Of a stretch of 64,000 bases of DNA, positions 6,700 through 9,847 are shown piece by piece. How positions within the stretch are numbered: position 1 is the first letter of the stretch; the number at the start of each line of letters is the position of its first letter. This DNA is from a virus. The position numbers and the translations under genes were made by a program. The notes beneath the pieces were generated by a model, which did not search any database, was not told the DNA's origin, and was given only the letters and a program-made list of their open reading frames with translations. Location of the stretch: IMG/VR virus record IMGVR_UViG_3300020595_003017, positions 96,001 through 160,000 of that record. One strand, given 5' to 3'.

Positions 6700-6882
6700 A
6701 TGAATTGCTTTCAAATCGAAGTCCGTGGCACAACCTTTACAATCTGGGCACCTACCATTCAAGATGCTTTAGAAACTTTTATGATTGATATGGAGTTTTA
6801 TGAGGTGCCCAAGGAATTGGCTTCTATGGGTTCCTCCGATATGGGGGGTGATCTTTTTCCTGCTGAATGTAATGGTTTTTAA
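6700..6882 (+). CDS. small acidic early hypothetical protein
   Basis: Strong SD directly behind promoter copy 1; TAATG coupling to the NifU gene. Confidence 0.7.
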   Translation: MNCFQIEVRGTTFTIWAPTIQDALETFMIDMEFYEVPKELASMGSSDMGGDLFPAECNGF

Positions 6883-7181
6883 TGAGTGTAAAAGATAATA
6901 GTTTTCAAGAGAGATTATCAAATTTTGTTAAGGATGACATCAATCCGAATCTCGCTGCCCACGGTGGCTGGATAGAAATCGTTTCAGCCGATGAAGATAC
7001 TGGAGTTGTTAAACTAAAAATGGGTGGAGGGTGTCAGGGTTGTGGGGCTAGCGCAGCAACCATGCAACACGGAATTAAGATGGCCTTAATGGACGAGTTT
7101 ACAGAGATAAATGAAGTTTTAGATGCCACTGATCACAGTGCCGGAGAAAATCCTTTCTATATGGGTAATCCTTTTAAATAA
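6882..7181 (+). CDS. NifU C-terminal domain (NfuA-like) Fe-S cluster carrier
   Basis: INPNLAAHGGWIEI, MGGGCQGC (CxxC), C-terminal DATDHSAGENPFY as in the NfuA C-domain. Confidence 0.88.
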   Translation: MSVKDNSFQERLSNFVKDDINPNLAAHGGWIEIVSADEDTGVVKLKMGGGCQGCGASAATMQHGIKMALMDEFTEINEVLDATDHSAGENPFYMGNPFK

Positions 7182-7195
7182 AAGATAAATAAAAC

Positions 7196-7223
7196 TTGAC
7201 TTCTACGTTAACAGTGATATTAT
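7196..7223 (+). promoter_or_regulatory. early sigma70-type promoter, copy 2
   Basis: AAAAC-TTGACT-N16 (ending TGA)-TATTAT, then TAAGGGAGAGAG and ATG 7245. Confidence 0.8.
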
Positions 7224-7244
7224 AGGTTTGTAAGGGAGAGAGAT

Positions 7245-7718
7245 ATGAAGTTAGAGTCTGCTCTTAAAAAGATTCGCAATCGTGCCAAAGCTGTCAATCG
7301 TGAGGTTATGATTGAACAGAATGATTATCACAATAATAACCACCCCAAGGTCTATGTTTACTTTGAAGGTTCCAACCAGCTTATTTCATTCTGGACAAAC
7401 AGCGACGGCAGCATTAGTGCTCCTCATGTCAAGCGTCAAGGTGATGAGTCTGACCCTCACACGGACTACTTCCCCGGTTGCTTTTATGACAACATTACGC
7501 AAGCACTCAACTCGATTGCTCCGCTGCCTCCCAAATACCCGGTCGGCTCGTTAGTCCGCTTCAAAGACAATAAGCGTAACAACCGTTGGAAGTTGGCTGG
7601 CAAGGTTGCCTTGGTAATCCAAGCCGAAGCTGGTGGCAACTACAAGGTTCAGTACGAAGGTAGTGAAGATCGCTACAACCCCTTCTACGCCCAGCGTGAT
7701 ATTGAGCGGGTGTCATAA
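7245..7718 (+). CDS. early hypothetical protein (possible SH3/KOW-like C-terminal part)
   Basis: 157 aa ORF with its own promoter and SD; C-terminal PVGSLVRFK..G.VALV...YKVQY pattern. Confidence 0.8.
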   Translation: MKLESALKKIRNRAKAVNREVMIEQNDYHNNNHPKVYVYFEGSNQLISFWTNSDGSISAPHVKRQGDESDPHTDYFPGCFYDNITQALNSIAPLPPKYPVGSLVRFKDNKRNNRWKLAGKVALVIQAEAGGNYKVQYEGSEDRYNPFYAQRDIERVS

Positions 7719-7723
7719 AAAAC

Positions 7724-7751
7724 TTGACTCCTAGTCAATCCGTGATAATAT
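7724..7751 (+). promoter_or_regulatory. early sigma70-type promoter, copy 3
   Basis: AAAAAAC-TTGACT-N16 (ending TGA)-TAATAT, then TAAGGAGAGAG and ATG 7771. Confidence 0.8.
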
Positions 7752-7770
7752 AAGATATAAGGAGAGAGAA

Positions 7771-8085
7771 ATGGCTGCTGCGAATCCCGAAGTCGAATTT
7801 CACATGAACGGTTTTCTTAACGAGTGTGTGGAGATGTTGAACAATCATTATGATTCTAAGTTCCCGAACTTGCCTCGCCCAGAGGTCAAAGTCAAAGCGG
7901 GTGGTAAATACTACAAAGTTTATCAGGATGCCGGCGAATACCACAAGAGCGTTTGGTTCTTCGTCGGTAAAGAGGACGGCTTGATTTGGAAGGCTGCTTC
8001 TTGGAAGTCTCCTGCTCGCAACTTCGCTCGTGGAAATATTCTTGAAGACAAAGCAAAAGACGTCATCGGAGTTTATGGATTATGA
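7771..8085 (+). CDS. conserved phage hypothetical protein (KAASWKxPA type)
   Basis: KYYKV...SVWFFV...GLIWKAASWKSPA...RGNI resembles a small protein I recognise from large myophages; function unknown. Confidence 0.75.
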   Translation: MAAANPEVEFHMNGFLNECVEMLNNHYDSKFPNLPRPEVKVKAGGKYYKVYQDAGEYHKSVWFFVGKEDGLIWKAASWKSPARNFARGNILEDKAKDVIGVYGL

Positions 8086-8366
8086 TTTTAGCTGCCCTTG
8101 TTTTACTTGCTGCCCCAGGTTTAGAGACTAATGTCGTAAATCAAGGCAACCCTTCAACAGGCATTTATTGTCCAGTCTTTATGACTAAAGGCGAGGCCAT
8201 CTTCGGCGGACCAGATGTAAAACCTCGGGGACTTAATAAAGTTCTACAAAAACACATGTGCTTTACACACGTTGTGATGCCTCTTCAGCAGATCTGTATT
8301 ATGGAAGGTCATAACGAAAAGCGTTGTAAAATGAGAACTGTCAAATGGATTAAGAAAAAGAAATAG
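8082..8366 (+). CDS. hypothetical exported protein
   Basis: N-terminal MILAALVLLAAPG signal-like segment; four Cys; ATGA coupling. Confidence 0.6.
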   Translation: MILAALVLLAAPGLETNVVNQGNPSTGIYCPVFMTKGEAIFGGPDVKPRGLNKVLQKHMCFTHVVMPLQQICIMEGHNEKRCKMRTVKWIKKKK

Positions 8367-8373
8367 GAAAAAA

Positions 8374-8502
8374 ATGTTTATCCTTAGATTAAGAAAAGAT
8401 GTGTGGATGCCTGCTTTGATGTTTCTCTCCGGTATTGCCACAGGAATGGTTGGCGGAGCACTTTTGAGTTTAGAGTACCCTATTTATTGGCTAACCTTTT
8501 AG
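8374..8502 (+). CDS. 42-aa membrane peptide (not in the ORF track)
   Basis: Own translation: MFILRLRKDVWMPALMFLSGIATGMVGGALLSLEYPIYWLTF*. AGGA upstream; fills the gap between two genes. Confidence 0.45.
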   Translation: MFILRLRKDVWMPALMFLSGIATGMVGGALLSLEYPIYWLTF

Positions 8503-8511
8503 AGGGATATA

Positions 8512-8718
8512 ATGTCAGAGAACAAGAAACAGTGGAAATGCAATTTCAAGCTTGAGATTATCAGCAAAGAGGGAGCATCACTAGATGATTTTAATGCTTC
8601 CCTTGATAAATTTGTTAGTGATTGGATTGATGTTATCCCCGACACAGGAACAGCAGCACCGGAAAGTGCTATTGACTTCTGGCACGGCGGATTACACTTC
8701 CCACCAGACGAAGAGTAG
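8512..8718 (+). CDS. small acidic hypothetical protein
   Basis: 68 aa with GAGGG upstream. Confidence 0.65.
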   Translation: MSENKKQWKCNFKLEIISKEGASLDDFNASLDKFVSDWIDVIPDTGTAAPESAIDFWHGGLHFPPDEE

Positions 8719-8755
8719 AATTTAGGGAAACAAATAAATGAATAAACGACGATAA

Positions 8756-8918
8756 GTGTCAGGGTTAAACCCGAACCGATCTGGCAGGAAGCATAAAGAG
8801 CCAGCGTCCCTACCTTCAGTACCCACATACCTTTGAAGAGTTGCGTGTGGAAGACGGCTTGTAGGGTCAGATACAAATGTAACAGGAGTCCAGATGTACT
8901 TGGGCAAAAACTCTTCAC
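8756..8918 (+). ncRNA. candidate 6S-like (stem-bubble-stem) structured RNA
   Basis: Hand fold: interrupted closing stem 8756-8784/8890-8918, unpaired 23x23 nt bubble, terminal stem-loop 8808-8866 (CCCTAC/GTAGGG, CCACAT/GTGTGG). No credible + strand ORF. Strand assumed from the neighbours. Confidence 0.42.
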
Positions 8919-8922
8919 ATTT

Positions 8923-8999
8923 GGTTCCGTAGCTCAGTTGGATAGAGCAACGGCCTTCTAAGCCGTGGGTCGCAGGTTCGAATCCTGCCGGAATCGCCA
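8923..8999 (+). tRNA. tRNA-Arg(UCU)
   Basis: Cloverleaf: acceptor GGTTCCG/CGGAATC, anticodon arm ACGGC-CT TCT AA-GCCGT, GGTTCGAATCC T-loop, encoded CCA. Confidence 0.97.
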
Positions 9000-9009
9000 A
9001 GGAGTTATG

Positions 9010-9615
9010 ATGTTGAGAGTTTTAGGAAAATTACCAAGAGAACTGGTCGTCGCTGTCAGCGGCGGTCCAGACTCTATGGCTATCTTGGACTTTCTTAATA
9101 ACAGTCATAAAGTGACTGCCTATTATTTTGATCATGGAACAGAGTTTGGAGTTGAGGGTTATCGTTTCCTTAAGGACTATTGTGGAAAGAAAAATATTCC
9201 CTTAATTGTAGATTATATTTCTTCTTCCCGACCAAAGGGCAAATCCATGGAAGAGCACTGGCGTGATGAACGGTACAAATGCTTTCACGCTTTTGATTTT
9301 CCGGTTATCACGGGTCATCACTTAAACGATGTGATTGAGTGGTTTTTATTTTCTTCTATGCACGGACAGGGAAAAGTTATTCCCTACAAGAACAAAAACG
9401 TTTTTAGACCGTTTATCTCTACTCCTAAAAGCAAACTGCTTGACTGGTGTGAGCGCAAGGAAGTTCCTTATCTGGTTGATCCGGCAAACGAGAACCGAGA
9501 CTTCATGCGAAGCATTATTCGACACGATATTGTGCCCCATGCCGAAATGGTAAATCCAGGGATCGAAAAAACATTTAAAAAAATAGTAGAAAGGGAGTAT
9601 AATCTATTATACTAA
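9010..9615 (+). CDS. tilS: tRNA(Ile)-lysidine synthase, compact catalytic domain only
   Basis: VAVSGGPDSM PP-loop, DHG, E..WRDERY, TGHHLND..E, RPF, DPAN...RS.IRH. Start 9010 (or 9007) follows GGAG 9001-9004; the tracked start 8965 lies inside the tRNA. Confidence 0.92.
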   Translation: MLRVLGKLPRELVVAVSGGPDSMAILDFLNNSHKVTAYYFDHGTEFGVEGYRFLKDYCGKKNIPLIVDYISSSRPKGKSMEEHWRDERYKCFHAFDFPVITGHHLNDVIEWFLFSSMHGQGKVIPYKNKNVFRPFISTPKSKLLDWCERKEVPYLVDPANENRDFMRSIIRHDIVPHAEMVNPGIEKTFKKIVEREYNLLY

Positions 9616-9692
9616 GGGGGGTTAGCTCAATTGGTTAGAGCAACTGACTCATAATCAGTAGGTTCTAGGTTCAAGTCCTAGACCCCCTACCA
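9616..9692 (+). tRNA. tRNA with CAU anticodon, probably tRNA-Ile2 (lysidine substrate)
   Basis: Acceptor GGGGGGT/ACCCCCT, A73, CCA; arm ACTGA-CT CAT AA-TCAGT. Lacks the initiator GGG/CCC anticodon stem. Begins at the base after the tilS stop. Elongator Met is not excluded by sequence alone. Confidence 0.9.
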
Positions 9693-9693
9693 T

Positions 9694-9769
9694 GCCCGAA
9701 TAGCTCAATTGGCAGAGCAGTGGTTTTGTAAACCAAAGGTTGCAGGTTCAATTCCTGCTTTGGGCACCA
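9694..9769 (+). tRNA. tRNA-Thr(UGU)
   Basis: Acceptor GCCCGAA/TTTGGGC, loop TT TGT AA, encoded CCA. Confidence 0.96.
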
Positions 9770-9772
9770 TAA

Positions 9773-9847
9773 GCGGCTATCGTATAATGGCCATTACCTC
9801 AGGTTTCCAACCTGATGATCTCGGTTCGATCCCGAGTAGCCGCTCCA
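9773..9847 (+). tRNA. tRNA-Gly(UCC)
   Basis: Acceptor GCGGCTA/TAGCCGC, U73, arm TCAGG-TT TCC AA-CCTGA, encoded CCA. Confidence 0.96.

Follow-up and report, generated by a model that had tools for sequence, protein, structure and literature searches.

The 64,000-bp window considered here, which spans bases 96001-160000 of one virus record of 190,528 bp (IMG/VR record IMGVR_UViG_3300020595_003017), carries a run of early-type promoters followed by a cassette of four tRNA genes and a gene for a relative of tRNA-Ile lysidine synthetase (TilS). The genes of this phage differ sharply in their use of the isoleucine codon ATA and the arginine codons AGA and AGG (together AGR); the codon bias is real, and two classes are present, one almost free of ATA and poor in AGR and one in which these codons are common. 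We put at about 0.6 the probability that these classes reflect selection on genes whose products must be made fast or in large amounts, together with tRNA and TilS supplementation for the AT-rich remainder. The original prediction for this locus had read it as a codon gate, in which several early genes avoid ATA and AGA while the phage builds its own decoding kit, giving a translational early-to-late switch. The kit is there, as a TilS-like protein with tRNA-Arg(UCU) and a tRNA with anticodon CAU, and so are the two codon classes, but the codon pattern does not show a switch.

Genes were called with a simple codon-model open reading frame (ORF) picker (n = 223, 94% coding), and two called starts that overlapped tRNA genes were corrected. 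Genome-wide, ATA makes up 0.32 of isoleucine codons and AGR 0.55 of arginine codons, and no other codon fractions vary nearly as much across the 223 genes. About one gene in five belongs to a class with almost no ATA. The among-gene overdispersion (beta-binomial rho) is 0.156 for ATA and 0.171 for AGR, in comparison to 0.00-0.05 for the remaining A-ending codons (0.022 for ACA and 0.006 for GGA). The ATA distribution has a spike at 0-5%, which holds 17 of the 127 genes with at least 10 isoleucine codons, besides a wide peak at 25-50%; a mixture of three components (rates 0.02, 0.20, and 0.46) fits it better than the beta-binomial does, by 12 log-likelihood units. For AGR there are two modes, near 0.2 and 0.65. 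Therefore, the genome-wide check for bimodality that had been suggested with the codon gate finds fractions that are not unimodal, and the strict promoter class defined below lies wholly within the low class. ATA and AGR usage also covary across genes (Spearman 0.67; partial 0.45 given GC3, the G+C content of third codon positions).

The promoter class was delimited by a strict family of promoter and ribosome-binding site (RBS) elements, comprising about ten sites genome-wide, and is thus a sequence prediction. Each element consists of an A-tract, TTGAC[AT], a 16-nt spacer with TGn, a TAnnnT -10 box and, about 8 nt on, AAGGAGAGAG followed by ATG. The ORFs at 6700, 7245, and 7771 each lie directly 3' of one such site, AAAACTTGAC[AT]-N14-TG[AG]TAnnnT plus AAGGAGAGAG. 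The early promoters of phage T4 are of a strong sigma-70 type with an extended -10 and are used by host RNA polymerase; by analogy, these elements are predicted to be early promoters for the host RNA polymerase. The features of the locus, and those elsewhere in the window that bear on the argument, are as follows (window coordinates).

6650-6699, + strand: early-type promoter and strong RBS (A-tract, TTGACA, 16 nt with TGn, TACCTT, AAGGAGAGAG)
6700-6882, + strand: 60-aa ORF without a match in the family search; 0/4 ATA, 0/1 AGR
6882-7181, + strand: NifU/Nfu-like Fe-S scaffold domain protein (PF01106, 1e-18); 2/5 ATA, an exception within the unit of ORF 6700
7192-7244, + strand: second early-type promoter and RBS
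7245-7718, + strand: 157-aa ORF without a match in the family search; 0/8 ATA, 0/10 AGR, GC3 0.56
7720-7770, + strand: third early-type promoter and RBS
7771-8085, + strand: 104-aa DUF7717 protein (PF24835, 3e-12); 0/3 ATA, 0/3 AGR
8082-8718, + strand: small ORFs 8082-8366 and 8512-8718; jointly 0/11 ATA
8480, + strand: CTATTTA late-type motif
8923-8999, + strand: tRNA-Arg(UCU), reading AGA (and AGG) (ARAGORN; Rfam tRNA, 72 bits)
9007-9615, + strand: TilS, 202 aa, catalytic PP-loop domain only (TIGR02432, PF01171, alignment to Aquifex TilS 1WY5)
9616-9692, + strand: tRNA(CAU), most likely tRNA-Ile2, a TilS substrate reading AUA (ARAGORN, E. coli matches, linkage)
9694-9769, + strand: tRNA-Thr(UGU) (ARAGORN; Rfam)
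9773-9847, + strand: tRNA-Gly(UCC) (ARAGORN; Rfam)
9859-10347, + strand: adenine phosphoribosyltransferase (apt), directly 3' of the tRNAs; 9/12 ATA, the highest share nearby
10340-10915, + strand: methylthioadenosine/S-adenosylhomocysteine (MTA/SAH)-nucleosidase-like gene, following apt
21063-21385, + strand: phage transfer-messenger RNA (tmRNA) (Rfam RF00023, 84 bits against a gathering score of 47)
23449-24288, + strand: PD-(D/E)XK-type exonuclease, originally called Cas4-like (PHROG 69, 7e-21); 0/15 ATA, 2/11 AGR
54802-55209, + strand: gp25-like baseplate wedge subunit (PHROG 261/43); 5/13 ATA, 7/7 AGR

The codon counts on which the gate had been built were reproduced exactly: no ATA among 15 isoleucine codons and no AGA or AGG among 14 arginine codons in ORFs 6700, 7245, and 7771; one ATA in the 13 isoleucine codons of tilS; no ATA in 15 and two AGA in 11 arginine codons of the exonuclease gene; and ATA in 5 of 13, with AGR in 7 of 7, for gp25. 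The true start of tilS is at 9007, just after tRNA-Arg, with which its AGR count becomes 4/12. At genome-wide rates, the chance of the three-ORF result is P = 0.003 for ATA and 1.3e-5 for AGR; given the GC3 of each gene at other codons, it is about 0.035 and 0.012, respectively. When the first genes behind all ten elements are pooled, ATA is found at 0 of 74 isoleucine codons (7.5 expected from GC3) and AGR at 10 of 99 arginine codons (18 expected).

Avoidance of ATA extends well past these first genes. The replication block has 16 ATA in 261 isoleucine codons, in comparison to 42 expected from GC3, and includes the DnaE-type replicase (0/68) and the gene at -54396 (0/10). A 16-gene microgene array has 3/57, and similar near-zero counts are seen for a fused SbcD-SbcC (1/78), a TubZ-like gene (0/22), and a GMP-reductase-like gene (0/27). 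On the late side, the major capsid gene (0/31) and the preceding gene for a 326-aa scaffold-like protein (0/16) are likewise free of ATA (jointly 0/47, 11.4 expected). A plain GC3 shift as the whole explanation was ruled out, as ATA and AGR avoidance exceed the GC3 expectation. Additionally, virion genes show lower ATA use with higher expected copy number: 0% in the capsid, 17% in the sheath, 20% in the protease, 27% in the portal, 36% in the terminase, and 37-62% in the large tail proteins. Shine-Dalgarno (SD) duplex energy, added to GC3, improves the model for ATA by 12.8 log-likelihood units. Most virion and accessory genes have 36-44% ATA, and a 3543-aa protein contains 84 ATA and 127 AGR codons; the ATA-rich, AT-rich part of the window extends beyond late structural genes, to those for PrkA, SpoVR, a pyridoxal phosphate (PLP) enzyme, and a PIN-PhoH protein and to a 20-kb sugar island.

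If the classes formed a true gate, ATA- and AGR-rich messages would be untranslatable until the phage tRNAs and TilS accumulate, and codon choice itself would delay the late proteins. Several observations fit such a switch. The genes behind strong early-type promoters, the microgene array, and the replication block all avoid ATA, while most virion and accessory genes use it freely; replication enzymes that are not abundant are ATA-free, and this is conserved in DnaE orthologues; the kit itself is placed behind early-type promoters; and very long late genes, such as that of the 3543-aa protein, are rich in these codons. However, the main late gene, that of the capsid, and its upstream partner are ATA-free across the clade, so that avoidance, proposed as a mark of early genes, is equally found behind a late-type motif, and ATA use among virion genes drops with rising expected copy number. 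Conversely, early-type units are not free of the supposedly gated codons: the exceptions acknowledged with the original prediction, the NifU-like gene (2/5 ATA) and ORF 5313 (8/11 ATA and 6/7 AGA), were both confirmed, and they and apt (9/12) sit in such units. Similarly, the ATA-free exonuclease gene lies outside the early-type units, as does the capsid gene.

The other codons of the kit are not set apart either. Ranked by depletion in the promoter class among 59 codons, ATA and AGA are first and second, as the gate would have it, but ACA and GGA, which two of the four phage tRNAs read, are only 9th and 10th, no more depleted than GCA, CCA, TTA, and CTA, all of which lack a phage tRNA here. 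The proposed tie to promoter class fares in the same mixed way. The strict strong-promoter class and the replication block are almost ATA-free and AGR-poor, but classes predicted by a loose sigma-70 scan separate weakly (24% versus 40% ATA by transcription unit over all genes; first genes, Mann-Whitney P = 0.25); the strict family was used, and the loose scan set aside, because the latter yields many doubtful early calls in AT-rich DNA.

Timing may also have a transcriptional basis. Across the whole genome, the heptamer CTATTTA (for instance, at window positions 8480, 46173, and 58482) has 30 copies on the + strand but 4 on the - strand, where about 19 would be expected on each, and it stands 16-59 nt ahead of the starts of several virion genes; both the scaffold-like and the capsid gene follow it. 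Because of this placement and its coding-strand bias, CTATTTA is a plausible candidate late promoter, which would suggest that late timing is set by transcription, as in T4. Since the capsid gene avoids the gated codons, early units hold exceptions, ACA and GGA are undifferentiated, and a transcriptional late motif is present, a strict switch is unsupported, and we regard a true gate as unlikely.

The bias is not confined to this phage: in about 20 related metagenomic phages, too, the genes behind such promoters avoid ATA. In three scans of IMG/VR, which yielded loci that are phylogenetically non-independent, promoter/RBS-type ORFs from 37 loci with a TilS relative have 7/284 ATA and 26/335 AGR, in comparison to 24% and 46% in neighbouring ORFs. 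Capsid orthologues from 80 loci (54-93% identity) have 56/2087 ATA (2.7%) and 9.0% AGR, and the neighbouring virion genes 28% and 53%. In DnaE orthologues, ATA stands at 2.6% at 70% identity or more and at 9.3% below, with 14-30% in the neighbours. Synonymous sites should be saturated at these distances and yet the bias persists, which indicates that it is kept by selection and is no accident of one genome.

The organization of the cassette is conserved as well. Of 21 close loci, 20 have the order tilS, tRNA(CAU), tRNA-Thr(UGU); tRNA-Arg(UCU) precedes tilS in most of these and comes immediately 3' of tRNA(CAU) in four. All 19 close loci with sufficient flanking sequence have an early-type promoter 0.65-2.6 kb ahead of tilS, and five loci that are more distant still have tRNA(CAU) no farther than about 3 kb from tilS. 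Within the window, no terminator is predicted on the + strand between the last promoter-proximal ORF (7771) and tRNA-Arg (8923). The ORF-free gap at 8719-8922, ahead of tRNA-Arg, was considered as a structured RNA and rejected (fold z-score +0.62 versus shuffled sequences; no Rfam match at E <= 1). No TilS was found in a 183-kb IMG/VR relative (G001, 81% complete), which carries instead a tRNA-Ile(UAU) (L129:4243-4319, - strand) clustered with Arg(UCU), Lys(UUU), Leu(UAA), and Asn(GUU) tRNAs. A tRNA-Ile(UAU) reads AUA without lysidine; thus, AUA decoding appears to be the conserved function. On another contig, of 385 kb (L046), a UAU tRNA and the TilS with its CAU tRNA occur together.

The assignment of the 202-aa protein to the TilS family rests on a score of 110.2 bits against TIGR02432, the curated NCBI model of the TilS N-domain (cutoff 93.6), and on a PF01171 match at 7e-31. 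Its translation contains SGGPDS, a motif of the SGGxDS type, and the gene has an AAGGAG RBS directly after tRNA-Arg. Identification as TtcA or another PP-loop enzyme was rejected, with 22 bits against the TtcA model (cutoff 272). Bacterial TilS proteins of type I (E. coli 1NI5 and G. kaustophilus 3A2K) and type II (A. aeolicus 1WY5) have a PP-loop domain with SGGxDS and HHxxD motifs, to which the phage protein aligns over its full length, but they are 317-464 aa long with C-terminal domains, of which the phage protein has none. Its alignment is confined to the catalytic domain (residues 25-228 of 1WY5 and 21-225 of 3A2K), structure-sequence alignment finds no C-terminal tRNA-binding domain (CTD1, with or without CTD2), and the full-length E. 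coli model NF007942 gives 43 bits (cutoff 606). It is filed as a one-domain TilS relative and not as a canonical TilS, because the C-terminal domains are lacking and the NF007942 score is far below cutoff. Relatives of about 200 aa are present in at least 385 metagenome clusters, Tara marine data included, and others are encoded by uncultured phages of 630 kb and by the Pseudomonas jumbo phages PA5oct and MIJ3. In bacterial TilS, the C-terminal domains, found in all solved structures, bind the tRNA body and help to reject tRNA-Met.

tRNA(CAU) begins one base after the tilS stop codon, and ARAGORN and Rfam give it an elongator-type cloverleaf, with a paired G1-U72 and an anticodon stem without three G-C pairs. 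An initiator identity was rejected on these pairing features and on a covariance model that scores the E. coli initiator at 59.7 bits and elongators at 76-79. The best E. coli match is annotated as tRNA-Ile in all 5,426 genomes, and the one match examined is ileX, beside rpoD and mug, with which the phage tRNA shares the T-loop and the pairs G30-C40 and A31-U39. tRNA(CAU) is thus most likely tRNA-Ile2, the TilS substrate reading AUA, and the 202-aa TilS would be expected to form lysidine on it. In an alignment of 23 tilS-linked CAU tRNA genes, position 72 is almost always U (a G1-U72 wobble or A1-U72), and E. coli ileX and metT both have G1-C72 at the top of the acceptor stem.

These features allow a further reading, in which the one-domain TilS has co-evolved with its own co-transcribed tRNA, with its conserved G1-U72 or A1-U72, as an orthogonal pair that decodes AUA independently of host TilS. 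Since the pair and tRNA-Arg(UCU) would need time to build up, codon choice would then contribute to the infection programme. Were this so, early and replication genes would have been purged of AUA and AGR to run on host tRNAs, and the AT-rich genes would be fully translated once the kit is available. A TilS without the discriminating domains might, moreover, modify host tRNA-Met as well. We consider such a pair improbable at present.

A different role for the kit would be to replace host tRNAs that are degraded during host shut-off or cut by anticodon nucleases. The phage does carry a tmRNA and therefore invests in keeping ribosomes running, and a study of phage Sf14 favours heavy reliance on phage tRNAs after degradation of the host genome (PMC12482277). 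However, there are only four tRNAs, and the conserved core reads exactly those codons that are most enriched outside the optimised class; a relative that swaps TilS and the CAU tRNA for a UAU tRNA preserves AUA decoding itself. We also know of no nuclease that targets tRNA-Ile2. Replacement or counter-defence is accordingly the least probable of the explanations considered, with very little weight. Regarding the tmRNA, it was missed by ARAGORN, lies behind a TTGACA-type promoter near 21019, and encodes a tag that reads ANDDFQLAQAA from the alignment; one distant TilS locus (L044) has a tmRNA as well.

The explanation that we favour, translational selection with supplementation, would work as follows. 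Drift makes the phage genome AT-rich, and AUA and AGA/AGG come to be used freely by the majority of genes. In many bacteria these codons are read by scarce tRNAs, and if the host decodes them slowly, selection for translation efficiency would keep the genes that require rapid or massive translation free of them. The protected genes would be those first behind very strong sigma-70-type promoters and RBSs, those for replication enzymes, and those for the major capsid protein and the scaffold-like protein. All other genes would be supported by the conserved cassette downstream of early-type promoters, probably made from early in infection, which consists of tRNA-Arg(UCU), the catalytic-domain-only TilS, the CAU tRNA (most likely converted by TilS to lysidine-tRNA-Ile2), and tRNA-Thr(UGU), here joined by tRNA-Gly(UCC).

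Several observations weigh against this explanation. With GC3 in the model, AGR avoidance is not predicted by SD strength, and the tail sheath gene is ATA-poor (17%) yet AGR-rich (65%). DnaE and the fused SbcD-SbcC are ATA-free yet not obviously abundant, and timing fits them at least equally well. A covariance model built from the 23 tilS-linked CAU tRNAs scores ileX at 79.2 and metT at 76.2 bits, a gap of 3 bits, and the phage tRNA is not separated from elongator tRNA-Met by sequence alone. The scarcity of host tRNAs for AUA and AGA is inferred only from the phage's own optimised genes. Finally, G+C content at first and second codon positions (GC1+2) differs between the classes, at 0.45-0.48 versus 0.40, and a compositional or ancestry component therefore exists.

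Taken further, this component would make the classes a compositional mosaic that reflects the origin or residence time of modules and not selection on translation, with tRNAs that merely match the AT-rich part. The window region given as 11-82 kb has 33-38% G+C, a GC3 of 0.28, and a GC1+2 of 0.40, in comparison to 0.43-0.51 and 0.45-0.46 in the early and replication blocks; the AT-rich part holds the sugar-biosynthesis island, of a type that is often exchanged horizontally; and GC1+2 improves the fit. Nevertheless, heterogeneity runs gene by gene, with SbcD-SbcC (1/78 ATA) beside genes of 4/9 and 6/10 and the capsid gene (0/31) beside one of 15/27. ATA avoidance goes far past the GC3 prediction while other A-ending codons are nearly homogeneous, and it is retained in orthologues at 55-70% amino-acid identity. 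A mosaic as the sole cause is thus doubtful, and translational selection with supplementation remains the preferred explanation.

Beyond the cassette, the genome (41% G+C over the whole record, about 37% in the window) has distantly T4-like virion genes, among which portal, large terminase, prohead protease, tail sheath, and baseplate genes were detected. The major capsid protein, of gp23 type, shares 44-45% identity with its counterparts in Flavobacterium phage immuto, Microcystis phage Mel-JY01, and Rhodothermus phage RM378, and the replicase is a DnaE-type Pol III alpha. No close DNA relative was found in the phage collection, where tRNA-Arg was the sole match. Searches for a host through a GMP-reductase scan of genome contigs found no relative, and a degenerate pattern of the tmRNA tag peptide had no match in genome contigs. 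ARAGORN finds tRNA-Arg(UCU), tRNA(CAU), tRNA-Thr(UGU), and tRNA-Gly(UCC) as the sole tRNAs in the 190,528 bp.

Some of the surrounding gene content deserves mention. The fused SbcD-SbcC (1050 aa, L001:1806-4958) and the TubZ-like tubulin (L001:7243-8376) are both almost ATA-free. A MoxR/CobS-like AAA_5 ATPase and a DUF2201 VWA/metallopeptidase-like protein (L005:9009-11388, genome 87009-89388) each lie behind one of the strongest early-type promoters, with ATA at 0/10 and 0/19. SpoVR-like and PrkA-like genes, a pair of the bacterial yeaG/ycgB type, are followed by a PLP-dependent cysteine-synthase-like enzyme (window 1018-5283, plus a gene ending at 1040), and these genes are rich in both ATA and AGR. 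The AT-rich sugar-biosynthesis island of about 20 kb (window 24295-44796) encodes GT4 glycosyltransferases, epimerases/dehydratases, a DegT aminotransferase, a NeuB-like synthase with a cupin domain, a B12/radical-SAM enzyme, and a C-methyltransferase.

Much of this has precedents. Temporal classes of codon usage were reportedly described in T4 by Cowe and Sharp in 1991, and Bailly-Bechet and colleagues are said to have set out the logic of phage tRNAs as supplementation in 2007. T4 encodes eight tRNAs that read A-ending codons and relies on host TilS. The Arg-UCU, Ile-CAU, Thr-UGU, and Gly-UCC set of the present phage is a subset of those eight. The two phages are alike in having discrete codon-usage gene classes, tRNAs that match the codons of the AT-rich class, and early promoters of a strong sigma-70 type with an extended -10. 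In contrast to T4, the present phage has its own TilS, a capsid gene in the host-adapted class, and a DnaE-type Pol III alpha replicase.

PA5oct and MIJ3 encode a TilS of about 200 aa that is 39% identical to the present one over 97% of its length, and their genomes are likewise AT-rich, with tRNA(CAU), Arg(UCU), Thr(UGU), and Gly(UCC) (PMC6892783; PMC7318152). However, PA5oct has no annotated tRNA within 4 kb of tilS, which here is wedged between tRNA-Arg and tRNA(CAU); the TilS of MIJ3 and PA5oct was published with its function given as unknown and without an analysis of codon classes (PMC6892783; PMC7318152). Duncan et al. (2020, PMC7589089) proposed that a putative lysidine synthase of chloroviruses aids the decoding of AUA, a codon 12-13 times more frequent in the virus than in the GC-rich host. 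That system shares virus-encoded TilS, tRNA clusters, and the same proposed AUA role, but it belongs to a giant virus of a eukaryotic algal host, for which neither a tight tilS-tRNA junction nor an early/late codon split is described (PMC7589089). Phage structural genes have been found to be under translational selection for host-preferred codons (Lucks et al. 2008, PMC2266997), early and late phage gene sets to differ in codons (Mioduser et al. 2017, PMC5683454), and phage tRNAs to serve late genes (Sf14; PMC12482277). Here too, adaptation to the host is far stronger in the capsid gene than in other genes, and early and late sets differ, although the contrast is concentrated in Ile-ATA and Arg-AGR, codons that the phage itself can decode.

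The phage is thus a real and conserved form of a pattern known from T4. The concept is not new, since there are published cases of codon classes tied to phage tRNAs, of capsid genes adapted to the host, and of TilS carried by viruses. It does offer a clean experimental case, in which two codon families hold almost all of the between-gene contrast and the phage encodes decoders for both, and a comparative series of dozens of uncultured relatives, at least some of them marine, one of which apparently replaces TilS and tRNA(CAU) with a tRNA-Ile(UAU). Additionally, its one-domain TilS raises the question of how the tRNA is selected and tRNA-Met spared without C-terminal domains. Ribosome profiling of the phage would also permit a test of the idea, dating from the T4 era, that phage tRNAs act for one temporal class of genes.

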